Counted from the first letter of the stretch, positions 919 through 22,545 are shown. The stretch: DNA of 64,000 nt from an uncultured delta proteobacterium (GCA_963769935.1 CAVYNY010000013.1:480001-544000), one strand, 5' to 3'. Notes: generated by a model from the sequence alone, not told the origin. Made by a program: numbers and translations.

Positions 919-2037
919 ATGGATCAGGATTTTTTGGTTTACATCGGAACCTACACAGAACCGATTCTTTTCGGGACGGGTAAAATCCTCCAAGGCAAAG
1001 GGGAAGGAATATATGTCTACCGCATGGATTCGGTTTCAGGCACCATGGAATTAATCAGAACGATCACCGGTATTACGAATCCGTCATATTTAGCCTTTGA
1101 TTCCAGTTGCAGTTACCTGTATGCCGTCAATGAATTAAAGTCATACCAGGGTGAACCAACCGGCACGGTTAGCGCATTTTCAGTAAATTCAAAAACCGGG
1201 CAGTTGACGTTTTTAAACAAAAAACCGACCGGCGGAACCGATCCTTGCCACCTGACAGTGGATAAGGCCGGCAGATATGTTCTGCTTGCCAATTTCATGA
1301 GCGGCAGCGTATGTGTCCTGCCGATCCGGGCTGATGGAAGTCTGGATGATGCCTCTGACTTTAAACAGCATCATGGCTCCAGCATTGATCCAAATCGCCA
1401 GCAAGGTCCCCATGCGCATGCGGTCACACTGGATGAGAGCAATCGGCATGCTTTTGTACCGGATCTCGGGTTGGATAGAACGCTGATTTATAGATTCGAT
1501 GTTGAATCAGGACGGTTGGAACCTGGTGAAGAACCATGGGCAGCGGTGAAACCCGGTGCGGGTCCGCGCCATCTCGTTTTCCACCCGAACGGCCGGTATG
1601 CTTATCTTATTAACGAACTTGATTCCACCATCACCGTCTATAAATACGACAGTAGGAAGGGAAAACTCCTTGATATCCAAACAATTTCGACGCTGCCGGA
1701 GGATTATCACGGCACGAACGCCTGCGCCGATTTGCATGTCTCTCCCTCTGGAAAATTTCTCTATGGTTCCAACCGGGGGCATGATAGCATTGTTATATAC
1801 AAAATCGATCAAACTGCCGGCCGACTTCACGGCATCGGTCATGAATCAACCCAGGGAAATACCCCCCGCAACTTTGCAATCGATCCTGCCGGCGGTTTTT
1901 TGCTCGCCGCCAACCAGGATTCCGACGCGATTGTTACCTTTCGCATCGACCCGCAATCGGGCGAGCTTCGTCCAACCGGGCAAGTTGTGGAAGTTCCAAC
2001 GCCTGTGTGTGTCAAAATAATTCTGATGAAATCGTAA
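919..2037 (+). CDS. pgl: 6-phosphogluconolactonase / lactonase family beta-propeller
   Basis: YIGTYT, NPSYL, PHAH, GAGPRH, SNRGHDSI, PRNF motifs. Confidence 0.9.
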   Translation: MDQDFLVYIGTYTEPILFGTGKILQGKGEGIYVYRMDSVSGTMELIRTITGITNPSYLAFDSSCSYLYAVNELKSYQGEPTGTVSAFSVNSKTGQLTFLNKKPTGGTDPCHLTVDKAGRYVLLANFMSGSVCVLPIRADGSLDDASDFKQHHGSSIDPNRQQGPHAHAVTLDESNRHAFVPDLGLDRTLIYRFDVESGRLEPGEEPWAAVKPGAGPRHLVFHPNGRYAYLINELDSTITVYKYDSRKGKLLDIQTISTLPEDYHGTNACADLHVSPSGKFLYGSNRGHDSIVIYKIDQTAGRLHGIGHESTQGNTPRNFAIDPAGGFLLAANQDSDAIVTFRIDPQSGELRPTGQVVEVPTPVCVKIILMKS

Positions 2038-2064
2038 AAAGTAATCTGAGGATTTCGCAAAAAT

Positions 2065-2185
2065 GTAGTGGCGGGGTTTATCCGGGCCTGGCTGTAAGCA
2101 TTTGCCTTAATGAACACTCGGCTGAATCATTCACGGACAACGGCCTGATTCGCCGCTTAGGCGGCGATAAACCCCGTCGTTATAC
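2065..2185. repeat. REP-like inverted repeat pair (GTAG type) between convergent genes
   Basis: GTAGTGGCGGGGTTTATC at 2065 and GATAAACCCCGTCGTTATAC ending 2185. Confidence 0.55.
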
Positions 2186-2211
2186 GGCTTGCTCCTTAAA
2201 GCGGTCCCAGG

Positions 2212-2568
2212 TCAAACCCTGTCCGGTGCAAACCCTCTGCCTTTTTCCATCAATTCTTTGCGCGGCGGGCTGAAAAGATCGACCAGGATCGTCTCCTCGA
2301 CGTAGTGGGATTCATGGGCCGCCATGGATTCGATCATGTAGGAATCGCCGGGATTCAGCGTCAGGGTCTGGTCCCCTGTTTTAAATTCGATCTTGCCTTT
2401 AACGACATAACCGCACTGCTCGGCGGCGTGGCGCTCCATAGGCCAGGTACAGCCTTTAGCAAATTTGTAGAGCACCATCATCATGTTGTCTCCCATAATG
2501 ACTTTACGGCTCACTTCATCAGAGACAGGTTCCCATTCGATAGCGTCCCAAACAACTTTCTGTGGCAT
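2212..2568 (-). CDS. Cupin domain protein
   Basis: ERHAAEQCGYV and AHES cupin motifs; start set at MPQKV behind AGGAGG. Confidence 0.85.
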   Translation of the reverse strand: MPQKVVWDAIEWEPVSDEVSRKVIMGDNMMMVLYKFAKGCTWPMERHAAEQCGYVVKGKIEFKTGDQTLTLNPGDSYMIESMAAHESHYVEETILVDLFSPPRKELMEKGRGFAPDRV

Positions 2569-2674
2569 AATAGGCCTCCTTTCAATGATTAATAAGTAAA
2601 TACATATTCGACCGTAATTAGCTTCAACATTCGGTTTTAAACGTTCGATGTTCAATGTTCAGTTGGTTCGAATT

Positions 2675-3565
2675 TCATTTTTCCACAAGACCGAATCTCT
2701 CCTTACCGTAAATCATGACTATCGAGCCCAAAATGATCAATGAAGCCCCGATAATAAAACCTGTTGTCAGCCGCTCATTTAATATAATCATGGCATAAAT
2801 CGTTCCCTGGATTGGCTTGAAAAAAAAGACGATGCTGCCGACATTGGTTGAAGTCAATTCCATCCCTTTGTAATAGCATACAAATGTAATGCCGGAGCCC
2901 AGTATGCCCAGATACAGCAGCGGGAGAATATTACCCGTGCTGATGCCGGCGAACCAGGGAATGCCCGCCACAGGCAAGAACAATCCCAGCGACACGGTGC
3001 CGCAGATGACGACGATGGTAAAGGCGACCAGATTGCCGAATTTACCCGTCGTTTTTCTCATCAGAACATTGTAGAAGGCAAATGTGACGGCCGCGAAACT
3101 CAGGTGCAGAAAATAGATATCGAATTTATCGTTGAAAGGGTTGGATATAAACAGCAAACCGGCTATTTCCAGCGCTATGGAGGAAACGATAAAAATATTC
3201 GGTTTTTCATTCAGAATCCAGGCGGCAAAAATGGCAATAAAAACGGGATTGGACGAAAATACAAAGGTAGACAGCGAAGCCGCCGTATTTTGAATAGCAA
3301 CCTGGAGAAATACCATACTGATCGGAATATAAAGGATTCCAAGGCCGATCATGAAAAGCAGGTCCCGGGGCTGAATGACGACCTGCCGTCGCCGAGCATC
3401 ATGAATCGCGAACGGCAGCAGCGCCAGGCCGCCAATCAGGAATCGCAGGAAATTTAACTGGATCGCACCGATTCCATGCACCAGTTTGGAAATGACCTCA
3501 AACGGTCCGAAAATCAGAATGGTCAGGGTAAGATACAGATAGCCTTTGTTCAAAATATTCCCCAT
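2675..3565 (-). CDS. DMT/EamA family transporter
   Basis: About 10 hydrophobic segments, two EamA-like halves (LRF, ILNEK/ILNER). Confidence 0.9.
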   Translation of the reverse strand: MGNILNKGYLYLTLTILIFGPFEVISKLVHGIGAIQLNFLRFLIGGLALLPFAIHDARRRQVVIQPRDLLFMIGLGILYIPISMVFLQVAIQNTAASLSTFVFSSNPVFIAIFAAWILNEKPNIFIVSSIALEIAGLLFISNPFNDKFDIYFLHLSFAAVTFAFYNVLMRKTTGKFGNLVAFTIVVICGTVSLGLFLPVAGIPWFAGISTGNILPLLYLGILGSGITFVCYYKGMELTSTNVGSIVFFFKPIQGTIYAMIILNERLTTGFIIGASLIILGSIVMIYGKERFGLVEK

Positions 3566-3768: not shown

Positions 3769-3798
3769 TTGACAAATGCCATTCAGTGTTATTAATAA
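3769..3798 (+). promoter_or_regulatory. Putative sigma70 promoter of regulator/operon 1
   Basis: TTGACA at 3769-3774 and AT-rich -10-like TATTAATAA at 3790-3798. Confidence 0.5.
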
Positions 3799-3848: not shown

Positions 3849-4424
3849 GTGCTGATTGACGGCAAAAGCTTCGGTGAAAAAGTAAGAGCGCTTCGCATGC
3901 AGCGCGGGCTGACCCTGACCCATCTGGCCGAAAAAACCAGCCGCTCGGTCAGTCTGCTCAGCCAGATCGAAACCGGCAATGTCAGTCCCTCTTTCAGCAG
4001 CATGCAAACCATCGCCGACGCTTTGGAAGTGTCCCTGGCGCAGATCATTTCAGCGGAAAATGCGGCCGAAGGCGGAGATTTCTACCACATCGGTGAATCT
4101 GAACGCAAAGTTCTGATCACCCAGGGGGGGGTTCAGCACCAGCTTTTATCGCGCGGCCTGCCCCTTTCGTTTGAATTCAGCTTTATTGAAGTACCCCCGG
4201 GCGCATCCACCGGTGATCCCCTGTACTCTCACGAGGGTGAAGAATGCGGCGTTCTGCTTGAAGGTGAATTGGTGCTGGAAATCGGCCTGCAGGTATACCA
4301 TTTGAAGCCGGGGGATTCGATTACCATGAAATCCTCCCTGCCGCACAAGCTGTCCAATCCCGGTAATCAAAAAGCCCGGGCTTTATGGGTTAATTCGGTA
4401 CCCTATATTTTTTCGACAAGATGA
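3849..4424 (+). CDS. XRE-family HTH plus cupin transcriptional regulator
   Basis: LSQIETGNVSPS HTH; HEGEECGVLLEG...PH cupin sensor. Confidence 0.92.
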   Translation: MLIDGKSFGEKVRALRMQRGLTLTHLAEKTSRSVSLLSQIETGNVSPSFSSMQTIADALEVSLAQIISAENAAEGGDFYHIGESERKVLITQGGVQHQLLSRGLPLSFEFSFIEVPPGASTGDPLYSHEGEECGVLLEGELVLEIGLQVYHLKPGDSITMKSSLPHKLSNPGNQKARALWVNSVPYIFSTR

Positions 4425-4506: not shown

Positions 4507-5580
4507 GTGCGCGTGATTCCAAAATCAATGAAGGCCTGCATGCTGACAGGCGTCAACCAGTTCGCCATTCGAGAGATACCCGTCCCAACTCCCGGTCCTT
4601 CCGAAGTTCTTTGCCGGATCAAGGCCATTGCTATTTGTGGAACCGATCCCGAGATCGTCAAAGGCAAGCACCTGAACCGCAACTGGCCCCCTGAATTTCC
4701 GTTCGTATTGGGGCATGAGTGGTCGGGGGAGATCGTCAAATTAGGCGAAGGGGTCAGCGGCTTTATGGTCGGCGACCGTGTGGCCGGGGAGGCTCACAAA
4801 GGCTGCGGCCATTGCGCGAACTGTCTGAAGGGCCAATACACCCTTTGTCTCAACTATGGGAAAGGCGAAACCGGCCATCGCCACTACGGCTTCACCAATC
4901 CCGGCGCCAACTGCGAATACAACGCCTATTCCATCAAGGCCATACGAAAGATCCCGCCCTCCTTGAGCTTTCCCCATGCCGCCCTGCTGGACACTGCCGG
5001 TGTTGCGCTGCACGGCATCAAGCTGATTGGAATCACCCCGGGAGGCACCGTGGCGGTTTTCGGTCCGGGCCCGATCGGCCTGTGTGCGATGCAGATCGCT
5101 AAAGGCTTGGGTGCCAAGAATGTTGTGATGGTCGGCCGCGCACCGAGGTTGTCCGTGGCCAAAGAAATCGGCGCCAATCACGTAATCGATTTTGAAAAGG
5201 AAGATCCGGTGGCCCGCATCATGGAAATTACCCAGGGACTGGGCGCCGACGAAGTCCTGGAATGCTCCGGCGCCGCAGTGACCCCGGGGCAAAGCATCGA
5301 TTGCGTTAAAAAAGGCGGCAAAATCGATCTGATCGGATTCTACGACGACGAGCACGCAGACATTCCGTCGATCACCAAATTGGTGGTAAACGAGATCCTG
5401 ATTACCGGTTCGAGGGCGAACCCGAATGTCTCCGACGAGGTCATCCGGCTCTTCCAGGCGGGCGTGCTGAAAGGCGACAAGGTGGTCTCCCACCGGTTTC
5501 CGCTGGAAAAATACGCCGAGGGTTTCGATACCTTTGTCAACCGCAAAGACGGGGCCATCAAGGTGGTTATCGAGCCATAG
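4507..5580 (+). CDS. Zn-dependent alcohol/polyol dehydrogenase (MDR), paralog 1
   Basis: ICGTD, GHEW, CGHCANC..C structural Zn, GPGPIG. Confidence 0.92.
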   Translation: MRVIPKSMKACMLTGVNQFAIREIPVPTPGPSEVLCRIKAIAICGTDPEIVKGKHLNRNWPPEFPFVLGHEWSGEIVKLGEGVSGFMVGDRVAGEAHKGCGHCANCLKGQYTLCLNYGKGETGHRHYGFTNPGANCEYNAYSIKAIRKIPPSLSFPHAALLDTAGVALHGIKLIGITPGGTVAVFGPGPIGLCAMQIAKGLGAKNVVMVGRAPRLSVAKEIGANHVIDFEKEDPVARIMEITQGLGADEVLECSGAAVTPGQSIDCVKKGGKIDLIGFYDDEHADIPSITKLVVNEILITGSRANPNVSDEVIRLFQAGVLKGDKVVSHRFPLEKYAEGFDTFVNRKDGAIKVVIEP

Positions 5581-5700: not shown

Positions 5701-7188
5701 ATGCTTGAATTCAAGGGCATTTCCAAAAACTTCAAAGGCGTCAAGGCCCTCAATAAAGTCTCCTTCTCCATACCCGACGGGGTTATCCACGGGATCGTCG
5801 GCGAAAACGGCGCGGGCAAGAGCACGCTGATGAAAATTTTATCCGGTGTCTACCCGCCGGACAGCGGCCGCATCGAGCTGGACGGCTCCGCCATGGTGTT
5901 CGATACCCCTGAAAAGGCCTACGATGCCGGGGTGAGAATCGTGCATCAGGAACTCAGCCTGATCCGGTCCTTAACCATTGCCCAGAACATGTTTATCCAC
6001 CGGTTTCGGCGGGCTAAGCTCAAATTTATAGATCAGAAGCTCATTGAAGCCGAAGCGGCGGAAATGCTGCGCGAATGGCAAATCGACATCCCGCCGTCAA
6101 CCCTGGTTTCCGAATTGTCCATGGGGACCCGGCAGCTGGTTGAAATCGCCCGCGAGCTGTCGACCGGCGGCCGGATCATCATCCTCGACGAACCCACCTC
6201 GTCGCTGACCTTTAAGGAGATAGACCTGTTGTTCAGCGTGCTGCGCCTGCTGCGCGGCAAGGGATATATCATCATTTTTATTTCCCACCGCCTGAATGAA
6301 GTGATCGACCTGGTCGATCGGATCACCGTCCTGAGAGACGGAGAGGTGGTGGCAACGGCCGAGACCAGGGAATTGGACACGGCTCAGATCATCAACCTGA
6401 TCGCCGGCAGGGACCTGCGCGAGTTGTTTCCCAAAACGTCGGCACCGATCGGCAGTGTGGCGATCGAGGTCAGGAATTTGAGCGGAAAGGGCTTCAAGGA
6501 CATCAGCTTCAAGGTGCACTGGGGAGAAGTTCTGGGCATCGCCGGTCTGGTCGGCTCCGGGCGCAGTGAACTGGTCCGGACCATCTACGGCGTCAACGAG
6601 TGCCGCGGGGGCGAAATCCGTCTTGAAGACACGCCGGTCCGCATCAGATCGCCCAAAGAGGCCATCCAGATGGGAATCAGCCTGCTCAGTGAAGACCGGG
6701 AAGCCGAGGGGATGTTTCCGGATCTGAGCGTCTCAAAGAACCTGATCATACTAAAGATAAGGGAAGTACTGAAGAATTATTTCCTCAGCAAAAGCAAGAT
6801 CGAAGCCAAGGCCGCCCGCCTCGTCCACGAACTCAACATTGTGACCTACGATCAGGAGAAGCAGATCGTATCGGAGCTCTCCGGCGGCAACAAACAGAAG
6901 GTGATTTTGGGAAGACTGACAGGCTCGAAACCCAAAATCCTGCTTCTCGACGAACCGACCCGGGGGGTGGACATCGCCAACAAAACGGAAATTCACAAGA
7001 TCATGGGCCGGTTTTTGAATCAGGGGGGCGCCGTCGTGATGGTGTCCTCGGAGTTGAACGAATTGATCGGCGTCAGCGACAGGATCCTGGTTCTGAATGA
7101 AGGGGAATTCGGAGCCATCTATGAGCGCAACGAATTTGAGAAAGAGGAAATACTGCGATGTATGATGAAAGTGTGCCTGGCCGCCTAG
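5701..7188 (+). CDS. Sugar ABC transporter ATP-binding protein (RbsA-like)
   Basis: GENGAGKS, two DEPT motifs, LSGGNKQK. Confidence 0.95.
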   Translation: MLEFKGISKNFKGVKALNKVSFSIPDGVIHGIVGENGAGKSTLMKILSGVYPPDSGRIELDGSAMVFDTPEKAYDAGVRIVHQELSLIRSLTIAQNMFIHRFRRAKLKFIDQKLIEAEAAEMLREWQIDIPPSTLVSELSMGTRQLVEIARELSTGGRIIILDEPTSSLTFKEIDLLFSVLRLLRGKGYIIIFISHRLNEVIDLVDRITVLRDGEVVATAETRELDTAQIINLIAGRDLRELFPKTSAPIGSVAIEVRNLSGKGFKDISFKVHWGEVLGIAGLVGSGRSELVRTIYGVNECRGGEIRLEDTPVRIRSPKEAIQMGISLLSEDREAEGMFPDLSVSKNLIILKIREVLKNYFLSKSKIEAKAARLVHELNIVTYDQEKQIVSELSGGNKQKVILGRLTGSKPKILLLDEPTRGVDIANKTEIHKIMGRFLNQGGAVVMVSSELNELIGVSDRILVLNEGEFGAIYERNEFEKEEILRCMMKVCLAA

Positions 7189-8147
7189 CATCCAAAAACA
7201 TATTGGGAGTATCGCTCAATTTCAACAACGTGCAGCGCCTGTTCCTGCTCTCGGCCCTCGTGGTGGTGATCATCAGCATGACGCTGCTGAATCCCCGATT
7301 CCTGTCGTGGGGGAACATCATCAACATCAACCGCCAGATGTCGATCAACCTGATCATAGCCGTGGCAATGACCTACTGCATCATCTCCGGCGGGTTTGAT
7401 CTGTCGGTCGGATCGGTCGGGGCAATGGCCGGCTGTCTGACGGGCATCATCCTGGCATCGACCGGCAACATCCCGCTCGCCATCGCCGCTGGGCTTGCTT
7501 CCGGCGGGATCGTGGGGATCGCCAACGGGTTCGTCATCGCCAAACTGAAGGTCCCGCCCTTTGTGGCTACCTTGGGGACCATGTCGGTGGCGCGCGGCGT
7601 GGCCCTGCTGGTCACCGGCGGGATCATTATCAGCGGCTTCCCGGACAGTTTCAACTTCATCGGAACCGGATTTATATTCGGCATTCCGGTGCCGGTCATC
7701 ATCATGGTAATCGTTGTGGCCATCGGGCATATCGTCCTGTCCAAGACGGAATTCGGGCTGAACGTCTATGCTCTCGGCGGCAATTTCAAGGCATCCCGCC
7801 TGGCTGGGCTTGAAAACGACAAGATGATCATGAAGATTTACACCCTGAGCGGGCTGCTGTCCGCCATGGCCGGAATCATTCTCACGGCGCGCGTCATCTC
7901 AGCCCAGCCCGGGTTGATGGAAACGACGAACCTGGACGTGATTGCGGCCGTCGTCGTAGGCGGTTCATCGCTGGCCGGGGGCAAGGGGTCCATCGGCAAC
8001 ACGATCCTGGGCTCGGTTTTGATGGCGGCCCTGTTCAACGGCTTGAACATCATCGGTATCGGTTACGAATGGCAGCTGGTCGTAATCGGAATCATCGTCA
8101 TCATGGCGGTGGCCCTTGATATGATCTCCAGAAAAAACGAAATTTAA
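7158..8147 (+). CDS. Sugar ABC transporter permease (RbsC-like); start uncertain
   Basis: GGFDLSVG, PPFVATLG, IAAVVVGGSSLAGG. Confidence 0.93.
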   Translation: MYDESVPGRLASKNILGVSLNFNNVQRLFLLSALVVVIISMTLLNPRFLSWGNIININRQMSINLIIAVAMTYCIISGGFDLSVGSVGAMAGCLTGIILASTGNIPLAIAAGLASGGIVGIANGFVIAKLKVPPFVATLGTMSVARGVALLVTGGIIISGFPDSFNFIGTGFIFGIPVPVIIMVIVVAIGHIVLSKTEFGLNVYALGGNFKASRLAGLENDKMIMKIYTLSGLLSAMAGIILTARVISAQPGLMETTNLDVIAAVVVGGSSLAGGKGSIGNTILGSVLMAALFNGLNIIGIGYEWQLVVIGIIVIMAVALDMISRKNEI

Positions 8148-8277
8148 CCGGTAACAATCTTGGATCCCGATGGATGGTCATCGAGACCAGCGAAAGGATA
8201 TAGTGGCGTGCAGCGGATCGTGGACCCGTTGCCTAATCATATCCAAATAACCCAATCCAATCTTGAAGGAGGAAAAA

Positions 8278-9273
8278 ATGCGTAGATTAAATCTGATGGT
8301 ACTGATCGGCTTGATTGCATTCGCAGTTATCGTATCCATGTCGGCCATGCCGGCTCAGGCCCAGAAAAAAAATGTCGTCATCGGTTCCAGTATGGTTCAA
8401 AAAGACAGCGACTGGTGGGCGGTGATGGGCAAGTTCGTGGAGCAGGCGGCTGAAGCGGAGGGTTTCGAGGTCATCACCCTGTGGGCCGGAGGTGACCAGG
8501 AGAAGCAGATCAAGGATATGGAGGATCTGATCCAGCGCAAGGTCAATGCGATTGTTATGGGCCCGGTGCAGCAGGACGGCAGCATGGTCGCCATTAATGA
8601 GGCCGCCAAAGCCGGGATCCCCGTTATCACGGTGGGCCGCCGGTCGAAGACGGACAAACAGTATGCCGAGGTGTGGGCAAATGAGCCCCAGTTCGGGGTC
8701 GAGCAGGTGACCCAGATCGCCAAGGATTTCCCCAAAGGAGGCAACATAGTCTATTTGTTCGGCCCGGTGGGCGCCGGTTATGCCATCCAGATGTGGGACC
8801 AGGGCGTCGTTCCGACCATGAAGAAACATCCGAACCTTAAAATTCTCCAGAAGTACAGCTCCCCGAGCGACATCGCCTCGGACGGCATGAAGAACGCCGA
8901 AGACGCTATTGTCCGGTACGACAACATCGACATCATCGCCTGCAGCAACGACGGGTTGGCGCTGGGTGCGGTGCGGGCCGTTCAGGCCGCCGGCAAGGCG
9001 GGCAAGATCACCGTCTATGGCGCCGGGGCCACGGAAATGGGTATGCAGGCCATCGCTGACGGCGAGATGCGCTACACGACGATCAAGAGCCAGGCGAAAA
9101 TGGCGCAGATAGCCATGCAAAAAGTGGTGATGGCCATAAACGGCAAGCCGGTCGGCGAAAAGATCAACCTGGTGGCACCGATTGTCGTCACCAAGGAAAA
9201 TGTCCTCACCGTCAGGGACGCGATGTTCGGTGGCACAGTAACCGACCCGGGAACTTTCAAACCCAAAAAGTAG
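8278..9273 (+). CDS. Sugar ABC substrate-binding protein (RbsB fold)
   Basis: Signal peptide ending AQA, AGIPVITV, ND..ALGA; RBS AAGGAGG. Confidence 0.9.
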   Translation: MRRLNLMVLIGLIAFAVIVSMSAMPAQAQKKNVVIGSSMVQKDSDWWAVMGKFVEQAAEAEGFEVITLWAGGDQEKQIKDMEDLIQRKVNAIVMGPVQQDGSMVAINEAAKAGIPVITVGRRSKTDKQYAEVWANEPQFGVEQVTQIAKDFPKGGNIVYLFGPVGAGYAIQMWDQGVVPTMKKHPNLKILQKYSSPSDIASDGMKNAEDAIVRYDNIDIIACSNDGLALGAVRAVQAAGKAGKITVYGAGATEMGMQAIADGEMRYTTIKSQAKMAQIAMQKVVMAINGKPVGEKINLVAPIVVTKENVLTVRDAMFGGTVTDPGTFKPKK

Positions 9274-10386: not shown

Positions 10387-10447
10387 CATTCCGATCAACC
10401 CGGGAATCCGGGTGAACCAGCAGTACCCCGCGGAGGAGGAAAACGTG

Positions 10448-12468: not shown

Positions 12469-13103
12469 CAGCAACAGGTCGCCGGGGGCAAGGCTCCCGG
12501 CAGAACACAGCGACCCGACGCGTCAAAGACGAGCTGGTGCGATCCGCCCGGCGCGCTTACGAAATCGGCCTTCAGACAGGAGACGGCGGCAACTTGAGCG
12601 GCCGGGTGGCCGGTACGGATCTGGTTGTCATCAAAGCGAGCGGGGTTTCCTTCGGCGAATGCAGGCCGGACAACCTGGTGACCGTCAACCTCCAGGGCGA
12701 AATCGTCCACGGCGAAGCGAAGCCTTCGCGGGAGCTTTTCACTCATCTGGCGGTCTACACGGCGCGGCCGGAGATCCTGGGAATTTGCCACTGTCACGGC
12801 CCCTGGTCCATTGCCTGTGCCGAATTCCATTCCCAGATCCGCTGCATCAGCCTGCATGCCGGATCCAAAATCGGACCGATCCCGGTTCTGAAAGTCGCAG
12901 GACAAGGCGACCTGAAGGTCAAGAAGGCCGTTGAAGCCCTGCTGGCAAAATATCCGGGCTTGAAGGCATTCGTGCAGGCCCGGCACGGGATTTTCGCCAT
13001 GGCGGAATCCGTTACCCGGGCGGAGCACCATGCGGAATTGGTCGAGGAAACGGCGCAGATCGCCTGGCTGGTGGCCATGCGCAAGCTGCCGCGGGTTTCC
13101 TGA
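12465..13103 (+). CDS. Class II aldolase/adducin family protein (AraD/FucA/MtnB/OtnC-like)
   Basis: GGNLS, PSRE..H, HCH, RHG; ATGA overlap with upstream gene. Confidence 0.9.
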   Translation: MTATGRRGQGSRQNTATRRVKDELVRSARRAYEIGLQTGDGGNLSGRVAGTDLVVIKASGVSFGECRPDNLVTVNLQGEIVHGEAKPSRELFTHLAVYTARPEILGICHCHGPWSIACAEFHSQIRCISLHAGSKIGPIPVLKVAGQGDLKVKKAVEALLAKYPGLKAFVQARHGIFAMAESVTRAEHHAELVEETAQIAWLVAMRKLPRVS

Positions 13104-13117: not shown

Positions 13118-14398
13118 ATGCCGAAACAAATCGTATTGCTCGGAACGCTAGACACCAAGGGACCGGAGATCCAATTCGCCAAACAGCTGGTTGAACGCCG
13201 GGGGCACGTCGCGGTCGTAATCGATTGCGGCATTATGGGAGAGCCGTATTTCGCTGCGGCGGTCTCGAGACAGGAAGTCGCCGGCGCCGCCGGGACCACC
13301 CTCACGGAAATCATCGCCCGGGGCGACAAGAATGCCGCTATCCGGACGATGACGGCCGGATCAACAGCCATTGTCAAGCGGCTTCACGCAGCCGGCCGGA
13401 TGGATGGAATTCTCGCCCTGGGCGGCGGTCAGGGTACCGTGATGGGAACCGCGGTAATGCAGGCCCTGCCCTTCGGAGTGCCCAAGGTCATGCTGTCGGC
13501 CGTCGCCAACGGCCAGACCGCGTTCGGTCCTTTCGTCGGAACCCGGGACATCACGATCATCCACTCGGTAGCCGACGTCCTGGGGCTGAACATCATCACC
13601 CGGCGAGTCCTGGCTGAAGCGGTGGGCGCCATAACCGGTATGGTTGAGATAGATTTCGATGAACCCGGTTCGGGCCGCCCCGCCATCGCCATGACGACTG
13701 CGGGCGTCACGACGCTCTGTGCCATGCGCGCCCGGGATGTCCTGGATTCCAGGGGCTACGAAGTGATCGCCTTCCATTGCAACGGCATCGGCGCCCAGGC
13801 CATGGAAGAATTGGCCGAAGCCGGGCTGCTCGCCGGCATCCTGGACATCAGCCCGCATGACATCACGGATTATCTCTTCGGGGGCATCTTCCCGGCCTTC
13901 CGGAACCGGATGGAGGCAACCTGCCGGCTGGGGATTCCCCAGGTGGTTGTACCGGGAACCACCGATTTCATTCTGTATGCCGGGATTGACTCCGTGCCGC
14001 CCGAAATGTTGCAGCGCAAATACGTCATCCACAATCCGATCCATACCCACGTGCGCACCAACCATGAGGAAATGGCGGCGGTCGGACGCTTTATCGCCGA
14101 ACGGCTGATCCGCAGCACCGGACCGGCGGAGGTGATCATCCCCAAACGGGGTTTCACGGCGCTCAACACGGCCGGCGGTCCGATGTACGACCCGCAATCG
14201 GACAGCGGTTTTGCGGAGGGCCTTTTAGAGACCCTCGGGCAAGGCGGTGCGCATAAGGTCCGCGTGGAGGAAATCGACCGGCATATCAACGACCCCGAGT
14301 TTGCCGAAGCCCTCGCCCTAAGGATCGATACACTGGTCACGCAGGCGAACCCTTTGCATACACGGAATATACAGGAGCATCATGAACCCCGCCGATAA
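13118..14398 (+). CDS. Tm-1-like ATP-binding domain protein (UPF0261), copy 1
   Basis: GTLDTKG, GGGQGT, LPFGVPKV, FHCNGIG, HINDPEFA. Confidence 0.9.
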   Translation: MPKQIVLLGTLDTKGPEIQFAKQLVERRGHVAVVIDCGIMGEPYFAAAVSRQEVAGAAGTTLTEIIARGDKNAAIRTMTAGSTAIVKRLHAAGRMDGILALGGGQGTVMGTAVMQALPFGVPKVMLSAVANGQTAFGPFVGTRDITIIHSVADVLGLNIITRRVLAEAVGAITGMVEIDFDEPGSGRPAIAMTTAGVTTLCAMRARDVLDSRGYEVIAFHCNGIGAQAMEELAEAGLLAGILDISPHDITDYLFGGIFPAFRNRMEATCRLGIPQVVVPGTTDFILYAGIDSVPPEMLQRKYVIHNPIHTHVRTNHEEMAAVGRFIAERLIRSTGPAEVIIPKRGFTALNTAGGPMYDPQSDSGFAEGLLETLGQGGAHKVRVEEIDRHINDPEFAEALALRIDTLVTQANPLHTRNIQEHHEPRR

Positions 14399-15676
14399 AT
14401 CGGGCTTTTTTGCGGATCGCGCGCGCCTGGACATGGCGCGCTATCTGGTTTTCGACTATCGCTTCGAAACGGCGATTGCGCCCGAGGAAGCCGCCGCGCA
14501 CCTGTGCCAGGAACAATCCACCGCGCAATGGAAGCGGGTCGGGGTGCAGGAGGACCTGCGGGAGCGTTTCGGTGCCAAAGTCATCGATCTGCAGATTGAG
14601 CGCCGGCAGGAGGCCCCCTCATTTCCTTCGGCCGCGCTCGCAGAAGGAGCGGTTGATGTCTGCCGGGTCAAAATCGCCCATCCGCACGGAAATTTCGGCC
14701 CCAAACTGCCGAACATTCTGACGGCCGCCTGCGGCGAGGGCGCTTTTTTTTCGCCGGGGATTTCGGCCATCAAGCTGCTGGACATCGAGTTCCCCGACGC
14801 GTTTCTGGAGAATTTCCAGGGGCCTCAATTCGGGGTCGAGGGTCTGCGCCGCATGCTGCAGGTCTATGATCGACCGCTTTTTTTCGGCGTGATCAAGCCC
14901 AACATCGGCCTGCCGCCGGAGCCGTTTGCCGAGCTCGCCTATCAGGCCTGGCTGGGGGGGTTGGATATCGCCAAAGACGATGAAATGCTGTGCGATGTCG
15001 ACTGGTCGCCGTTACGCAAGAGGGCCCGATTGTTGGGCGCGGCGCGCTTGAAAAGTGAGAAAGAAACCGGAGAAAAGAAAATATACCTGGCGAATATCAC
15101 CGATGAAGTCGACCGGCTGATTGAATTGCACGACATTGCCGTGGCGGCCGGAGCCAATGCCGTGATGGTCAACGGCATGACAACCGGGTTAAGTGCGGTG
15201 CGCATGTTGCGCAAGCATGCCCGGGTACCGCTGGTGGGACATTTCGACTTTATCGCGCCGTTCACTCAAATTCCTTTTTACGGCGTGCATTCAAAATTGG
15301 TCACCAAGCTGCAGCGGCTGGTGGGTTTTGATGCCATTATCATGCCGGGTTTCGGAAACAGGATGAAAACCCCGCAGGATGAAGTATTGGAAAATGTGCA
15401 GGAATGCTTCAAACCCATGGGCCATATCAAAGACACCCTGCCGGTTCCGGCCGGCAGCCAATGGGCCGGCTCCACGGTAAAATTATATCAGCAGCCTGGG
15501 TACGATTGATTTCGGGATTGTGCCGGGCAGGGGTGTTTTCGGCCATCCCATGGGACCCCGAAGGCGGCGCCGCCAGTCTGAGACAGGGTTGGGAATCGGT
15601 TCAAAAGAGTATGACCCTTGAAGAATACGCCAAGGATCATCCGGAGTTAAAGGCGGCGATTGAGGCGTTTTCGTGA
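14382..15676 (+). CDS. RuBisCO-like protein, form IV (Chlorobium-type IV-Photo); two apparent +1 frameshifts near 15496 and 15559
   Basis: [37 protein letters not shown]; removing two extra C's restores [28 protein letters not shown]...HPEL to stop at 15676. Confidence 0.9.
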
Positions 15677-15736: not shown

Positions 15737-16968
15737 TTACTTTGCTTCACCCATCACCTCCAACAATTGCTCAAAGGCGACAGTGGCAAATTCGTCATCG
15801 TTGATGTGAGCTTCTACCTCGATGATGGGGATGTCCCGCCGCAGGTTTTTTTTCAATTCCTTCAAAAACACCGGATTACCATCAGGATTCCACAAAGCCA
15901 GACCTTTCTTGTCCTGAGAGCAGAATCCCTGCGCCGGATAACAGGAATTTAACCTTGCCTTTCGCCTTGTTTAATTTTTCAGCAAAAGTTGCAGCGATGA
16001 TTTTCAATTCTTCCACGGTTGTATTTATAAGGGTAATATTCGGATTGTGGTAGTATTTTTGGCGATCATCATATTTTGACTGCAAAGCGTCTTCGCTGCT
16101 CAATACGATGATGTTGGCCGCTCCGGGTGTCACCACGGTCGGGACGCCCATTTCCAGTGCGGCTTCCATTCTGCCGGGCTTGGCGACATGCAGGCCCCCA
16201 AAATTATTGGCAACCAATTCGTTGGTTGAAAAGTCCAGCACACCGGCAAAATATTTTTCAGGGACCAAGGTGTCCATGCAATCACCGCCGGTGCCGTTGG
16301 CATGGAAGGTCAAAACTTCATAGCCGCGTTTTTCGAGCTCAGGTTTTATAACGCTCATGATGGGCTTGGTGGTTGTGCCCAGCATGCTGATGGCGATACT
16401 TTTAGGTTTTTTATCGGATGCCTCCGGTTTTACTTTAACCATTCCCACAATGGCACCCACCGCATTGTTGAAAACTCTTCTGCTGATCGAATTTATACCC
16501 AGGATATCGATAACGGAATGCATGACGGTGGCATCATTGTATCCGATGAGATCACTAAACAGGTGTTTGCCGGAAGCAATCGTGGAAACGGCGATCTTGG
16601 GTACGCCCAGCGGTAAGGCATCCATGGCCGCACGCGCTAATACGGACCCTTCCGCACCGCCGATGGCAATCAGACCCTGGATAGTTCCTTCTTCATAAAG
16701 CTTCTTCACATAAGTCTGTAGGCAATCCCGCATTCTTTCTATTGCGGCCCCCCTGGAGCCGGCATTCGACAAGCTCCTGGATGGTTTTACCTGAATACTC
16801 GACAACCTGGTCGCGGGTAACCTCAGGCTCCAGAAAGACCGGTTTGCCAAGGATGCCCGAATCAACCACCAGAGCGTTGACATGGCAGGATTCTATGCGC
16901 TGCTTCAAGTAGAGTGCTTCTTCTCCTTTGGTATCGCAGGTTGCGATGATTGCAATTGTGTCAGACAT
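15737..16968 (-). CDS. Tm-1-like ATP-binding domain protein (UPF0261), copy 2; frameshifts near 16770 and 15945
   Basis: ATCDTKG, GGAEGS, LPLGVPK, FHANGTGG, HINDDEFA spread over three frames. Confidence 0.85.
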
Positions 16969-17103
16969 AGCATGAATCCTCAATGTCCAATCAGATACTC
17001 AATTCCGGACGAACTATTTCGAAATAGGGATACGAACCGTTATTCAAATGCGCTAAAATGCCTAAAATTAAATTGACTAAAATAATTCGATGCGCTTAAA
17101 GCG

Positions 17104-17756
17104 CTAACTCTCGTATTCTTCCAGTTCGGCCAGAAGGTCGTTGAAAAATTCTCGGCGGATCTGATTCCGCCCCTCCGGGCCGCGAATTCTTTGCCGGTCT
17201 TGGTATAAAACGTCAAATTTTTGAAACCGGCCCGCCACTTGACGATGGCATACAGATTTTTATAATCCTGATGGCCCGCCAAACCGCGCTGTCCGAACTC
17301 CACATAAGTCCTCACAACCTGAAGGATACCGATTTTCCCTATCTTTTCCAGCAAATCGGCATCATGGACGACCTTGGCTTCCAGACTGGGCGGCTCGACT
17401 TCAAAACCGGGCATGGCTCCCTTATGGCTCAGGATGCAGTCGGCAATCTTTTTCCTTTCGGCCGCACTCCAATCACCCAGACGGTCCACGCACTTCTCGG
17501 CGCCGATGCGGTGATGGACCGCCGGATCCGGATTATACAAAAAGCCGATATCATGCAGCAGAATCGCCGGCAGTACGATCTGCATGTCGGCCCCCTCGGC
17601 TTCGCCGATCCGGACGGCATTGATCGTGTCCCGGTAGATATGGTCCCAGTTATGAGCGACGAAATCACGGCTCTCAAAGGCGGTTTTGACGCTGTCGTGG
17701 ATCATCTTTATCCGCTTGTCTGCAAGGTATCCCTCAAGTTGCGTGCGTGCCGACAT
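17104..17756 (-). CDS. HD domain protein; frameshift near 17160
   Basis: AHNWDH, LLHDIG, HDADLLE. Confidence 0.8.
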
Positions 17757-17773
17757 TTCAAACATCTCCGGAC

Positions 17774-18891
17774 TTAAAGACCTGCCGCCTCTGCAACCAG
17801 ATCCACCAGATTGACTACCTTGATATTATTTATACTCCGGGCAGTCATTGTTTTTTTGAAGGTTTCATCACAGCGCGGACAACCCGAAACCAAAAGGGCA
17901 GCTCCGGTCTCTCTGGCTTCATCGATTCTCAACGCGGCGATTGCTTCTGACACATCTGATCGATGAACCGCCAACATCCCCCTGCCCCGCAACAATTGGC
18001 CCATTGTTTATGAGTCGCCATCTCTTTGAACTCATCATCCAGGATTTTTGAAAGAATAAACCGGGGCGAATCCACATCCTCAAAAAATCTCGCCAGGACG
18101 CAGGGATCGTGATAGGTGGCACCATCAGTAACCTTGCTGATCACAGGTATCTGATTATTCTTCAACCAGTCTGCCATCAGAGCATTGATATGCAGGATCT
18201 TTATTCCCTTAATGTCACCGCCGAATCGTAGATGTTCTTCCCATCAGCATCCTGTAGCTGCGGCCATCCAGAGCGACAACCGTCGAAACTTGGCTGTCTC
18301 TGATCTTTTCTGCAACCAGGCTGATAATTGTTTGGCGCCTTCAAAGTCTCCCAGTTGATATAGCGCCCAACCACTGGCGGGTTCATCCGCAAGTACTTTA
18401 AATGATTTACCGGCCTGATTGAAGAGTTTGCCGGCGGCGATCAGCGTTGGTATTTGAGAATCCCTTGCCGCTCTGCCGCAAAACAGCAGTGTGTCGGCAT
18501 CGGAATCGAGCGCAATCCGGCATGCGGTCAATATCCTTTGCGGATTTTCCCCCTGTACCGGATTCTGGCGCAGACCTTTGGTGTAGGCGATGACTTCATC
18601 CGGTGCCAGGCCCTTTTCAAAGAGACGGGCTCTGGTATCAATCACGAGTTCTTCGTGATCGTAATTACCCACACACCATTGCTGCAGCATGCGGTCATTG
18701 AGGGTGGTATACATGATATCCGCCACATCCTCATCATATCCAAGCAGTCCGTTATCTAAGGCAGATATGATGGCCCCCCGGCCGCGTGGCGTATAGGATT
18801 CTCTGCGTACGACCTGGCCTACCCGGTCGGCACAATGACACATCATGCAAAAACGGCAGGCCCAGATGGTTTCCGTCTCTTTCCTTTTCAC
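17774..18891 (-). CDS. (Fe-S)-binding CCG-domain oxidoreductase subunit (GlcF/GlpC/HdrD-like); several frameshifts
   Basis: CRFCMMC, YHDPC, CCGAGG, SGCPRC in successive frames. Confidence 0.8.
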
Positions 18892-19068
18892 TCAAAAACA
18901 TCGCTGTTACCTTTTAAATTAAACGTTCTAATTTACGAATCTACCCGATTGGGATCATTTGTCCAAATTCATTGGAATATGCTTCGAAATCGATATTCGA
19001 AATTCGAATTTTGCCTTGCTCAGCCTTCAGCAGGATTCGGCCTCCCCAAATATGGATAAGATCATCGG

Positions 19069-20514
19069 TTACTTTCGCCTTATAAAACCCAGTTTGCCCG
19101 GATTCATAATTCCGGCCGGATCCAGTGCATCTTTAATTCTTTGCATCGTCGGCCAGGCCGGCCCATACTGTTCTTCCATCAACCAGCCCAGTTTAAAACC
19201 GATCCCATGATGATCGTTCAATACGCCGCCATGTTCAAGGGAAGCACGCGCCGCTTTGCCCCAGATCTCGGTATGCAGCTGCAAGGCTTCATGCGGATCC
19301 TGGGGTGGCTTGGCGATCAGGAAACGATCATAAACCATCACGCCCCACGGAAACCAGTGCGAGAAGTGTGCCATGTAGTCCGTACCCCACTCCTTGAATT
19401 CTTCGGTGATGACCCGTTGCTTGGCTTTGAATATATTGTAGATCTTATCGTAAGTTGCGGTGGTTTCCACAGTCCCGAACATTTCCGGCAGCATCAGACT
19501 GTGGGGTGGGAAATAGAAATCATAGCGATGCTTCCACCAGTGTTCACCGGGTTCCGGCCCCAATTGTTTCCCGTTCAGCTTCGGTACAGATCTCATGGAT
19601 GAGCTGAATTTCAAGATCCACAAACCGCCGGTCACCATCCGATCCTAGCACCATGAAGGCGCCTTTCATATCCAGATCAAGTACCCGTTTTACAACCCGT
19701 TCGCTGGAGCTGGAATCATAAAGCCGAATGACACAAGGATGCAGACGCTGGGTCATGATCCGCCGCCCGGCCTCAAGGCCCTGCCGGACATCTTCAAAAA
19801 TATAGGAGTTAAATCTGCGAACCTCGGGTATTGGATCCAGACGCATGGTAACTTCGGTAATGGTCCCCAGGGTGCCCTCCGAACCGACGAACAACTGCAA
19901 CAGTCCCGGACCGCAGGCATGGTTGGGTACCGGCAGGGTTCGGATTATTTCGCCGGACGCCAGCACAACCTCCATGCTCACGACCATGTCTTCGGCTTTG
20001 CCGTACTTTGGTCGACAAAGTCCCGGATCCCCGGGCGGCAACATACCCGCCCAGGGTCGCCCCGTATTCGGAAGCCGGATAATGGGCCAGGGTGAAACCC
20101 TTTTTGTTCAGGGCCCATTCAAGATGCTGGCCGTTGATTCCCGGTTGGGCGGTAACCGTCAGCGACGCCTCATCGATTTTGACAATCCGGTCCATCTTTT
20201 TCAGATCGAGAATGATGCCGCCGTAAAGCGGAACCACACCGCCTTGGCTGCCGGTGCCGCCGCCGTAAGGAATAACCGGGATCCCGTGCCGGGTGGCCAG
20301 TTTATGAATGCGGGCAACCTCTGCGGCCGATTCCGGGAACACGATAAAATCCGGCTTTTCCAGCGTCTGCCGCCGATCGAATCCACATCTGCGGGACCAG
20401 ATAAAAATCCATGCTGTAGGCCAGACGTTCGGCTTCACGTACGGTGACATCTTCGTATCCGACAATATCCAGCAATTCATTTTTGATGATACCTAACAAC
20501 AGATTTTCGGACAT
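19069..20514 (-). CDS. FAD-binding oxidoreductase (GlcD / alkyl-DHAP synthase-like); several frameshifts
   Basis: PYGGGTG, ATLGG, GSEGTLG, HHGIG, DPAGIMNPGK. Confidence 0.85.
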
Positions 20515-21420
20515 CCACCGACCTTTCTAAAATCGTTTGACTAATTGGTTGCTGCTGTTCAACCCTGTCTTTCCATTCGCGATTGGTGACTTCAATTTTA
20601 ACCTTTTCAAGTTCTGCGAGCGCCCGCGCCAGATGCGCTGCAAAGCGTTTTAAGGCTTCTTCGCCTTTTTCCTTTGTGCCCCGCAAAGGATTGCCAATAA
20701 GTCCGGTATCGGAGAACTCCCGGTGTTCCATCGGAAATACGAAATAATTATAGCCTTCAAATTCCACACTGGGGGTACCGTCTTTTTTCAGGAAAGATTC
20801 CGGCAAATAAGGCGGGGTGCTGGTTCTTTCACTTTTTACCGCGCGATCCATCCGGGCCAATTTTTCATCGTGCGCCAGAACCTGGGCGGTCTCCAGCTCT
20901 CCGGCATGCCACCCGGTGTTTCTTCCGGCGGACCTTCCAGGATGTCGGCGATCATGCCGAAATAGTTTTCCGCATAGGGTTTATATACGCACACCAGGGC
21001 GTTGGTATCGTACTTTGATTTTCCTCAGCAAGGGATCGATAATTTTCATGTTGGAGGCATGGCCCGGTAACAAATACAATCTTGTTGAACCCATGGTGGA
21101 TCAAGGAGCGGGCCACGTCATAGTAAAGATTTCTGAAAGTCTCGGCCCGCACGGTGATGGTGCCCAGTCCCAATCCGGGGGGGCCCATATGATGTGGGCT
21201 GTAGCCGATCCATGATTCCGGTGTATACAGCACCTCGGCCTGCACTGGCGGCCCGGTAGGTAACTTCTCTGGCGGTAATCATGTCGGTAAACAGCGGACA
21301 ATGGTAGGAATGCTGTTCCAGACTGGCAATGGGTACCATGATAATATCCTTTTTCTTGAGATAATCCTGGATATCGACATAGGTTAAATTGCCGATGTTA
21401 TATTTGTAATCTGTCTGCAT
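20477..21420 (-). CDS. Creatininase family hydrolase; several frameshifts, true stop possibly near 20559
   Basis: SLEQHSYHCP..TD, GYSPHH, GH, HAGELET, GLIGNP; RBS GGGGAG. Confidence 0.85.
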
Positions 21421-21624
21421 TTTGTCTCCCCTTCCTGGCCCCTGATTGAGTGGCGAATACAGAATCGGCCGTTTATAGTTAATTTTAAAAAAAATCAGAG
21501 AATAGGCTCGTTTAAAAACTGCAAGATCATCGGCAGGACAATTTGTACCTGAAAACAACCTTAAAGAAAATGCCTCCCGACAGTCAAGGAAAAAATCAAA
21601 TTTTCACAATATTTTTTAATAATT

Positions 21625-21651
21625 ATTATATTTTTTCAGTTTTTTAGTCAA
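21625..21651 (-). promoter_or_regulatory. Putative sigma70 promoter of operon 2
   Basis: TTGACT and TATAAT on minus strand; 15-nt homopolymer-rich spacer (short, possibly an error). Confidence 0.4.
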
Positions 21652-21779
21652 GCAAACATTTAAGAATTTAGTTGATGATAAAAAAATGCTTTACAAAGAA
21701 TGCATTATGTTTAATTATGATTAGCGCATCCTTTTTCAAATCTTCTCAATTTTTTGCACAATATTAACCTGGAACTGGC

Positions 21780-22545
21780 ATGTATCCTTTTGAGAGAAAA
21801 GAAAAAATTTTGGGTCGGCTGCGCAAAATTGGCCTGATCAACATCAACGAGGACGCCAAATTATTCAATGTGTCCATATCAACCCTCCACCGCGATCTTG
21901 AGGACCTTGAAAAACAGGGACTGGTAAAAAAAGTAATGGGCGGCGCCGTATTAGCAAACGGCAATCAATTCGCGACCCACTTTGACAAACGTCTGCAAAA
22001 TCAAGGTAAAGAAAAAAAGGCGATCGCCAGAAAAGCAGTTCAGTACATTAAAGACGATACGTCGATTTACCTGGACCATTCATCCACCGCTACCTACCTG
22101 GCGCGGGAAATTAAACAGCGCTCATTCAAAAGTCTGCTGGTTTTGACCAATTCGCTTCAGATTCCCGCTGAACTGGGCGGGGTTCAAGGAATACAGGTCA
22201 TCAGTACCGGCGGAGTGGTTGAAAGTGAGTTCAAAGCCCTGTATGGTCGATGGGTGGTTGATTCCATTCAGCGAATCAATTTGAATCAAATTTTCATCTC
22301 GGTCGGGGCTATTTCGGTGGCGAATGGGCTGATGACTCAGATGCACTTCATTAATGACTTGTTTCCGGAATTGTTCCGGCACAGCCAGAATATCAATGTG
22401 CTGGTTGACAGCAGTAAATTTTATAAATTGTGCACATTTCAGATTTCACCTCTGAAACCTTCGTTCACGATTTTTACTGATCAAAGGACTGCCTGAAGAA
22501 ATCAGAAATGAAATTGAAGCCAAAGGGCTAAAAGTCGAAATTTAG
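21780..22545 (+). CDS. DeoR/GlpR family transcriptional regulator; frameshift near 22481
   Basis: VSISTLHRDL..LE, K.AIA, TNSL, DSSKF; corrected end TDKGLPEEIRNEIEAKGLKVEI. Confidence 0.9.

Follow-up and report, generated by a model that had tools for sequence, protein, structure and literature searches.

The DNA analysed here, a window of 64,000 nucleotides from an uncultured delta proteobacterium (GCA_963769935.1 CAVYNY010000013.1:480001-544000), belongs to contig C13 of the source genome G000 (assembly of 8.0 Mb, 41 contigs). In its first part, two convergent operons meet at a gene for a RuBisCO-like protein (RLP) of the form IV Photo clade and at two genes for Tm-1-like proteins of the UPF0261 family (Table 1). 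An earlier note had proposed this gene set as an undescribed catabolic system. We assigned families by Pfam and NCBIfam profile searches of the window proteins, applying the curated NCBIfam cut-offs. Together with structure matches, these searches bore out the position, order and family of all 21 genes listed in that note, the overlaps at 12465 (4 nt, between the metallo-beta-lactamase (MBL) fold hydrolase and the aldolase) and 14382 (17 nt, between UPF0261a and the RLP), a regulator for each operon, and a cupin, an EamA/DMT transporter and a lactonase flanking operon 1. Overall, this is a real, conserved pathway cluster of a known general kind, namely phosphorylated sugar-acid catabolism via an RLP. 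The combination of two orphan families (Photo RLP and UPF0261) in this set, and the gene set itself, were not found described in the full-text literature searched, which lay mostly outside subscription journals. Below, L-numbers denote loci and G-numbers genomes, G446 being a Sphaerochaeta and G445 a Syntrophaceae genome.

Table 1. Genes of the cluster, with positions counted from the first letter of the window.
Feature	Position	Strand	Evidence and remarks
7-bladed beta-propeller lactonase	919..2037	+	PF10282 E 1.6e-122; orthologs in G445 65%, G446 50%
Cupin (flank)	2212..2655	-	PF07883; ortholog in G446 cluster, 50%
EamA/DMT transporter	2675..3565	-	PF00892; 43% ortholog immediately 3' of RLP in L078
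XRE-cupin regulator, operon 1	3849..4424	+	HTH_3 and Cupin_2; 5' of Zn-DH 1 ortholog in L103, L157
Zinc-dependent dehydrogenase (Zn-DH) 1	4507..5580	+	ADH_N/ADH_zinc_N; best NCBIfam tdh 222, IolM 200 bits, neither reaching cut-off
Monosaccharide-type ABC transporter	5701..9273	+	ATPase 5701-7188, permease 7158-8147, binding protein 8263-9273
Two small cupins	9499-9945 (Cupin_7), 10033-10386 (Cupin_2)	+	57-80% orthologs in G445, G446, G447
Zn-DH 2	10412..11536	+	51% identity to Zn-DH 1
MBL-fold hydrolase, acyl-homoserine lactone (AHL)-lactonase-like, likely lactonase	11665..12468	+	PF00753
Class II aldolase family protein	12465..13103	+	PF00596; FucA-type catalytic Glu, Zn His triad, phosphate-site residues
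UPF0261 (Tm-1-like) protein a, predicted ATP-dependent kinase	13118..14398	+	MarK 9MPY E 7.5e-64
Form IV Photo-clade RLP, GSQW subtype	14382..15676	+	2QYG/1TEL; frame broken near 15493, 15560
UPF0261 protein b	15737..16968	-	broken ~16766, ~15942; D-T-K and acceptor His present in pieces
HD-domain protein	17040..17765	-	PF01966; broken ~17166; orthologs within operon-1-type clusters L078, L092, L094
CCG-domain Fe-S protein, pieces	17774..18900 (start approximate)	-	intact ortholog L023:19280-20407 = PF02754
FAD-linked oxidoreductase, pieces	19069..20514	-	PF01565/PF02913
Creatininase-family hydrolase, pieces	20560..21420 (end approximate)	-	PF02633
DeoR regulator, divergent from operon 2	21780..22545	+	broken ~22482
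B12-binding radical SAM gene, pieces	22561..24621	-	PF04055; 11 indels; beyond the earlier note's interval

Recurrence and integrity of the cluster

Lack of recurrence in other genomes had been chosen beforehand as the outcome that would speak against the proposal; the set recurs across four phyla. In G446, one stretch contains 18 of the 21 genes with at least 40% identity, or 20 if weaker matches to the CCG protein and DeoR are counted; the lactonase, the DMT transporter, the flanking cupin and genes of operon 2 are among them. In G445, 17 of the 21 lie together. Co-location on this scale is therefore not chance. Across 78 GTDB loci from Thermodesulfobacteriota, Chloroflexota, Spirochaetota and Pseudomonadota, many of them close kin, the genes found within 10 kb of the RLP were MBL (42 loci), RpiB (33, fusions to the RLP included), UPF0261 (32), a SorC-type regulator (24) and the aldolase (21), with MBL, UPF0261 and aldolase jointly present in 17. 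These counts are lower bounds, because all four Chloroflexota chromosomes checked place UPF0261a and the aldolase 14-17 kb away in the same cluster; the orthologs there (59-61% and 52-54% identity, respectively) follow a GH38 gene. Gene order is also kept. Among 45 metagenome loci found using UPF0261a, the aldolase was directly 5' of UPF0261a in 29 of the 35 with enough flank, and the RLP directly 3' of it in 24 of 33. By descent the RLP is scattered: among 400 other genomes sampled across the host phylum, none had a Photo-clade RLP at E 1e-100, and 3 of 22 same-genus genomes had one at more than 70% identity. We therefore rejected a lineage trait in favour of a patchy distribution.

The earlier note had treated the two operons as one system, which holds only in part. 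In G446 and G445 the genes of the two operons are intermixed, relatives of the HD gene sit within operon-1-type clusters (Table 1), and UPF0261b follows UPF0261a in L140. On the other hand, operon 2 is separable. Its FAD gene (72% identity) occurs in four of the 22 same-genus genomes, accompanied by the creatininase in all four and by DeoR and CCG in three; no Photo-clade RLP was found in these four (completeness 82-95%). Moreover, operon 2 has its own regulator and was not found in four of five other RLP-cluster genomes. That it is a separate pathway for another compound, merely tending to adjoin operon 1, is a possibility that we take seriously without favouring it. At its far end the cluster probably extends to about 24621 through the broken radical SAM gene, since relatives of this gene adjoin the DeoR/FAD module in L023 and L162. 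A promoter and terminator scan of positions 1-20000 gave no signal (22 vs 16.1 +/- 4.7 and 23 vs 23.0 +/- 5.1).

As assembled, the second half of the cluster is disrupted. The RLP frame stops at 375 aa, compared with about 430 aa in most of the 120 matches listed, and from there to 24.4 kb all operon-2 genes and DeoR are split into frameshifted pieces; in coverage by long open reading frames, 15600-24600 falls in the lowest 0.7% of 868 nine-kb bins of the genome. Alignment with intact relatives (74-87% DNA identity) placed 28 single-base indels in seven genes, two pairs of which cancel out and could stem from noise in the alignment, and a further two at the 3' end of the RLP. Extra bases account for 22 of the 28. 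Six genes had a set frame (RLP, HD, MBL and UPF0261a being left out); they showed no nonsense codons, and their substitutions fell mainly on third positions (148 of 187 in the FAD gene, 90 of 120 in the creatininase gene). The MBL and UPF0261a alignments were free of indels. Short-read contigs, taken from four of 14 runs and all from a single study, carried an open frame at eight break sites, among them a 247-nt piece that spans the first RLP break with only one other difference; no RNA run was among those listed. Because only single-base indels are seen, without nonsense codons, assembly errors are very likely the cause. True pseudogenes in this strain would account for the packing of the indels into one 9-kb stretch, and the short-read pieces over operon 2, being mostly ~90% identical, come from another strain; given the excess of extra bases, the third-position bias and the open frames, this explanation is improbable.

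The RuBisCO-like protein and its partner families

The IV-Photo identity named in the earlier note is firm. The nearest solved relatives are 2QYG (E 4.7e-157) and 1TEL/1YKW (E 1.5e-153 for 1TEL), far ahead of other clades, with the next structure at 1.8e-40. In what we take to be the corresponding RuBisCO numbering, the protein keeps the enolising residues K172, K198-D-D-E201 and H287. The metal/carbamate site KDDE is present, as are E119, an Asn for RuBisCO K177, a Phe for R295, and R383, which was taken from the 97% identical relative P0002, the window frame breaking upstream of that residue. F288 stands in place of the second-phosphate Arg of RuBisCO, and R327 and R383 are invariant.

Alongside trees (FastTree for the RLP, a quick version for UPF0261), from which no direction of transfer is read, the RLP motif brought out two subtypes with different neighbours. 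The window protein has the motif PAGSQW and does not match the PGGSD of C. tepidum and R. palustris. GSQ was present in 45 of 45 RLPs that lie near an MBL or a UPF0261 gene, a catabolic context, whereas GSD was present in 10 of 10 full-length RLPs with a YjbQ neighbour and in the C. tepidum and R. palustris proteins. YjbQ loci made up 12 of the 78, eight of them with IspA or methylerythritol phosphate (MEP) genes, and never contained an MBL, UPF0261, aldolase or RpiB gene. Since it is never found with these, YjbQ may play the partner-isomerase role for GSD RLPs. With separate partners for the two subtypes, the window RLP may thus act on another substrate than the Chlorobium enzyme does.

Several observations concern the surroundings of other RLPs. 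YjbQ (UPF0047) stands directly 5' of GSD RLPs at L079, L086, L088 and L095, at L026, L043, L049 and L072, at L145:8993-11314 and at L152-L156, and likewise in six of six matches among 401 genomes from the class of G450. The settings are archaeal MEP operons, positions 3' of ispA, and the photosynthesis cluster of a purple sulfur bacterium, 3' of idi; the genes of Ca. Thiodictyon run pufBA-idi-yjbQ-RLP and face crtB. We rejected YjbQ-RLP as a simple replacement for DXS, which scored above its cut-off in three of five such genomes. GSQW proteins also occur in a third context (L020, L021, L022, L039) with one to three phosphoenolpyruvate (PEP)-hydrolase-like (TBST) genes and an FMN-reductase-family gene; a triosephosphate isomerase (TIM) gene follows in L020, and UPF0261 is nearby in L022 and L017. 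In L165 and L166 (G007, G018), an RLP of another clade (~35% identity) accompanies a cupin, a tripartite ATP-independent periplasmic (TRAP) transporter and a DUF1537 kinase, forming a parallel cluster with the known kinase family; the G018 cluster adds an MBL and PdxA.

A gene of about 150 aa beside the RLP in many loci is RpiB. RLP-RpiB fusions were seen in 6 of the 120 RLP matches listed and in 11 Chloroflexota loci. In RpiB, His99 and His134 help to open the ring of ribose 5-phosphate and to bind its phosphate; Ser replaces both in 44 of 44 domains, comprising 43 from the clusters and one copy elsewhere in G000. Structure 5IFZ shares the two replacements and E. coli RpiB (1NN4) does not. 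We take 5IFZ to be EryI of the erythritol pathway, although its record says ribose 5-phosphate isomerase. The DerI model was the first or second NCBIfam match for five of five cluster copies. On these alignments, a DerI-type RpiB belongs to the conserved core, though the window is without one and the earlier note had missed it. The G000 copy lies on contig C20 (L098:6668-15679) and is 78% identical to the cluster copy of L053; its neighbours are a GntR regulator, a tricarboxylate transporter, two xylose-isomerase-barrel genes and DAK1/DAK2. This is the layout expected for the ribonate route, which ends at D-erythrulose 4-phosphate (PMC13753588). By this analogy the C20 locus is likely a sugar-acid route to erythrulose 4-phosphate, and it may be the source of the isomerase that the window lacks. 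Since the partner RpiB is DerI-like and its G000 relative has a ribonate-type layout, D-erythrulose 4-phosphate is the most likely predicted product of the RLP step.

The UPF0261 proteins are probably the kinases of the pathway. MarK, the first member for which an activity was reported (in 2025), uses ATP to phosphorylate phenols; its Lys16 is required and His219 contacts the acceptor (PMC12624787). Equivalents of the ATP motif D-T-K, of G195 and of H219 occur in 76 of 76 cluster copies and can also be read in the UPF0261b pieces; an H304 equivalent occurs in 67 of 76. H348, a ketone contact in MarK, is not kept, with Leu, Asn or Gln around that column. Among the window genes, Pfam found no known sugar kinase family and no acetovanillone carboxylase genes. 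RLPs and class II aldolases act on phosphates. This need for a phosphate, the lack of another sugar kinase in the window and the precedent of MarK together underlie the kinase assignment. An enol or enediol acceptor, such as an ascorbate-like lactone, would reconcile a phenol-type site with a sugar pathway. A UPF0261 sugar kinase was not found described in the literature searched. Other arrangements of the family were also seen. In L063, UPF0261 and the RLP are fused in frame with the greater part of the kinase C-domain missing; this fusion may be a deletion and was not used. At L099:6247-9275 (contig C16 of G000), an ABC ATPase is fused in frame to a UPF0261 domain and followed by a PEP-hydrolase-like gene; a similar fusion occurs in L019, and these are either real or indel artefacts. 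A fumarate-reductase-like flavoprotein and a 2Fe-2S protein lie beside UPF0261 genes in L103, L116, L140 and L160, occupying the usual place of the RLP in L103 and L140.

The remaining enzymes bear on the substrate. In the MBL protein, HxHxDH, a second His, an Asp, the last His and an Arg are invariant in 58 of 58 cluster copies, although its score against AHL lactonase (AiiA) is 81 vs 375 bits. In the aldolase, the phosphate site, catalytic Glu and Zn-binding His triad, in what is presumably FucA numbering, are unchanged in 49 of 49 copies. Aldolases of four families were seen repeatedly next to the RLP: the class II family of the window, LsrF-type (L019, L105, L107, G445), fructose-bisphosphate aldolase (FBA) class II (L051, L052, L062) and RhaD/FucA-type (L107, L066, L073, L074). 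Such interchangeability argues for a cleavage that forms dihydroxyacetone phosphate (DHAP). A TRAP transporter replaces the ABC system in L103 and L112, and a 3HCDH-family dehydrogenase is present in L066, L078 and L169. An acid substrate is favoured because of these features and the two lactonase families. The intact ortholog of the operon-2 FAD protein matches alkyl-DHAP synthase (2UUU, E 1.4e-51) and D-lactate dehydrogenase (1.9e-41), and by analogy would fit a dehydrogenase acting on a polyol or acid phosphate. Intact creatininase orthologs scored 72-104 bits against IolN (cut-off 245) and 79-99 against creatininase (cut-off 235). No close solved relatives were found for the binding protein (nearest E 1e-29), the MBL (2e-16), the cupins (weak matches to unrelated structures only) or Zn-DH 1 (nearest to threonine and sorbitol dehydrogenases), and Atlas searches with the MBL and creatininase returned generic family names only. 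Vitamin B6 catabolism was rejected (4-pyridoxolactonase 75 vs 325 bits, FHMPC dehydrogenase 197 vs 500).

Some neighbours vary between loci. UlaG, UlaD/HPS, AraD-like and FGGY genes lie beside the RLP cluster, without a phosphotransferase system (PTS), in the Desulfocapsaceae-type loci L050, L055, L059 and L068; in L068 UlaG reaches 635 bits, above its cut-off, next to AraD. From these genes, it is possible that sulfate reducers use ascorbate independently of the PTS. In L063, L111, L115, L117 and L118, a LarA-family racemase gene precedes the MBL, and a GlcD-like FAD oxidase, an ADP-ribosylglycohydrolase and a PfkB gene follow the RLP. At L107:5363-11236, a fusion of aldolase and short-chain dehydrogenase/reductase (SDR) and an LsrF-type gene lie beside a DerI-type RpiB, an MBL and UPF0261a. 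A 2-phosphosulfolactate-phosphatase-family gene at L097:12276-12971, about 5 kb before the window, has relatives near related clusters in L023, L039, L110, L120, L127, L129, L160 and L163. Downstream, positions 24781-29949 hold a second class II aldolase (24781-25452), an alpha/beta hydrolase, a PilZ protein, an M20 peptidase and an amidohydrolase, none of them seen among the related clusters.

Comparison with known pathways

The earlier note recognised no characterised pathway in this combination, and the curated models agree: the RLP scores 193 vs 700 bits for OiaX, the aldolase 93 vs 250 for OtnC and Zn-DH 1 200 vs 450 for IolM, and no cluster enzyme reaches the cut-off of a named-enzyme NCBIfam model. 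The RLPs of C. tepidum (1TEL/1YKW) and R. palustris (RLP2, 2QYG) belong to the same clade and share E119, N174, KDDE, F288 and R327. They differ in having GSDS where the window protein has GSQW, and the host here is non-phototrophic. Moreover, the window RLP lies in a transport-plus-catabolism cluster with an MBL, an aldolase and UPF0261, and many catabolic loci of the clade contain a DerI-type RpiB. The Thermotoga inositol route, which we take to run through IolG, IolM, IolN and IolO (with family models from NCBIfam), likewise pairs a Zn-DH with a creatininase-family hydrolase; it has no RLP or UPF0261, and the scores here are below half the cut-offs (Zn-DHs 200 and 181 vs 450, besides the creatininase values given above). 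Shunts of methylthioadenosine (MTA) to isoprenoids or DHAP (DeepYkr RLP, cupin, Ald2) also combine an RLP, cupins and a class II aldolase, likely on a ketose 1-phosphate-type substrate. By contrast, our RLP is of the Photo clade and the cluster has an uptake system and lactonases. The mark of the isoprenoid shunt, a DeepYkr RLP linked to a methylsulfurylase cupin, to MtnP and to MtnA, was not found; MtnP and MtnA are absent from the cluster, and MtnA is on another contig.

The apionate routes (OiaX/OiaT, OiaK, LerI, DerI) resemble the cluster in starting from a sugar acid, in oxidation, in a kinase, in an RLP acting on a keto-acid phosphate and in an erythrulose-phosphate end (PMC13753588, PMC6302742). 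They use another RLP clade, and UPF0261 holds the kinase position here. ApnO and DUF1537 kinase had no Pfam or NCBIfam match among the window genes, to which the search was confined, and the window cluster has no TIM-type LerI. The tetronate and ribonate routes (OtnI, OtnK, OtnC; Rib2D, OrnI, DerK) share a dehydrogenase, a kinase and a class II aldolase-family enzyme that acts on a 3-oxo acid phosphate, and, in the accessible text, are described without Zn-DHs, MBL, UPF0261 or RLP. MarK of Novosphingobium aromaticivorans (9MPY) and tomato Tm-1 share with our proteins both UPF0261 domains and the D-T-K, G195, H219 and H304 equivalents; the differences are the H348 of MarK and the context, the neighbours here being sugar enzymes. 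Membership of the apionate, tetronate, inositol and MTA pathways was thus rejected on curated scores or partner genes.

A candidate route and its alternatives

The earlier note had also suggested a route for an unusual sugar, sugar acid or cyclitol. This is partly borne out, in that the Photo RLP sits in a recurring sugar or sugar-acid catabolic set. We put forward, at about even confidence, the following route. A small sugar lactone or sugar acid would be imported and likely opened and oxidised, and the acid would be phosphorylated by the UPF0261 proteins. The RLP would convert a keto-acid phosphate to D-erythrulose 4-phosphate, a DerI-type RpiB would isomerise this to erythrose 4-phosphate, and the class II aldolase (elsewhere LsrF-, FBA- or RhaD-type) would split a ketose-1-phosphate-like intermediate into DHAP and an aldehyde. 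Operon 2 would likely be a second entry, in which creatininase-family hydrolysis is joined by another kinase, by a flavin/Fe-S dehydrogenase and by a phosphatase.

A more specific version is tentative. In it, a five-carbon acid would become a 4-keto- or 3-keto-pentonate 5-phosphate, which has a backbone of the size of ribulose 1,5-bisphosphate with a carboxylate replacing the second phosphate. The Mg/carbamate site of the RLP could then form the enediolate and move the ketone next to the alpha carbon, and beta-decarboxylation would release CO2 and leave erythrulose 4-phosphate. Just as tentatively, Photo RLPs in general may shift the carbonyl of a five-carbon, ketose-1-phosphate-type substrate off the phosphate, as two subtypes with exclusive partners: the GSQW subtype making, by decarboxylation of a keto-pentonate phosphate, the D-erythrulose 4-phosphate that a DerI-type isomerase uses, and the GSD subtype with YjbQ supplying 1-deoxyxylulose 5-phosphate (DXP) for isoprenoids, UPF0261 being a new sugar-acid kinase family.

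Several points weigh against the proposed route. The DerI model (NF051858) gave 125-183 bits in five cluster copies and 146 in the G000 copy, below the cut-off of 240, and the loss of the ring-opening His would be compatible with acyclic pentose phosphates too. An RpiB is lacking in the window cluster, and the retrieved parts of L105 and L107 contain one but no RLP. The RLP is missing 3' of UPF0261a in 9 of the 33 metagenome loci, and the 78 GTDB loci are not independent. Proven UPF0261 acceptors are phenols only, and the authors read G195/H219/H304 as a phenol site (PMC12624787). Finally, LsrF-type thiolases score above their cut-off in L019, L105 and L107, and in G445 an LsrF-type gene (59%) stands where the aldolase ortholog is missing; such genes suggest, in place of a tetrulose, a five-carbon ketose phosphate with a methyl end.

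The last point leads to the breakdown of a methyl-ended (5-deoxy or methylthio) pentose, which we consider unlikely. Here the RLP would be a 1,3-isomerase between 5-deoxy-pentulose 1-phosphate and DXP, and either the aldolase would give DHAP and acetaldehyde or a dehydrogenase and LsrF would give DHAP and acetyl-CoA. The interchangeable aldolases are its main support, joined by the LsrF-type genes (also in G018), the aldolase-SDR fusion of L107, the sister RLPs that sit with YjbQ among isoprenoid genes, the radical SAM gene adjoining operon 2 and the MtnA gene on another G000 contig. However, MtnA and MtnP are in none of the annotated clusters, the window RLP is of the catabolic GSQW subtype and not the YjbQ-linked GSD subtype, and the two lactonases and the DerI-type partner would be left unexplained. 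In addition, R. palustris RLP2 had no detectable methylthioribulose 1-phosphate activity, its function being left open (PMC5893883, 2018).

A cyclitol is improbable as the substrate. Two oxidations and a creatininase-family ring opening, following the logic of IolM and IolN, would lead to a 5-keto-hexonate, to be phosphorylated by UPF0261 and split by the RLP and aldolase. IolM is indeed the second or third NCBIfam match of both Zn-DHs and IolN the top match of one G446 creatininase, and the Chloroflexota version has a Gfo/Idh/MocA gene (as does G018) and two xylose-isomerase-barrel genes. Apart from the low scores, the creatininase is missing in most RLP loci, and lactonases and TRAP transporters fit an acid better. 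Least credible is a branched sugar (apiose/apionate) on a new route to 3-oxo-isoapionate 4-phosphate without ApnO or OiaK, decarboxylated directly to D-erythrulose 4-phosphate by the RLP: OiaX is the top NCBIfam match of the RLP, the cupins could do the rearrangement, and known apionate routes end in DerI/EryI (PMC13753588), but the OiaX score is far below its cut-off, the window has no ApnO- or DUF1537-type gene, and a DUF1537 kinase was seen beside this RLP clade only in L062.

Photo RLPs have had structures and a knockout phenotype for some 20 years without a reaction, according to a 2018 report (PMC5893883), and no later assignment was found in the literature searched. UPF0261 proteins occur in each of life's three domains with one demonstrated activity, on phenols (PMC12624787). 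Here, one conserved unit holds a binding protein, dehydrogenases, lactonases, predicted kinases and a partner isomerase. If the two-subtype reading is true, this cluster would be the first complete pathway to assign the RLP and UPF0261 families. The cluster could thereby give a function to both orphan families and reveal a new carbohydrate route in soil and sediment anaerobes.

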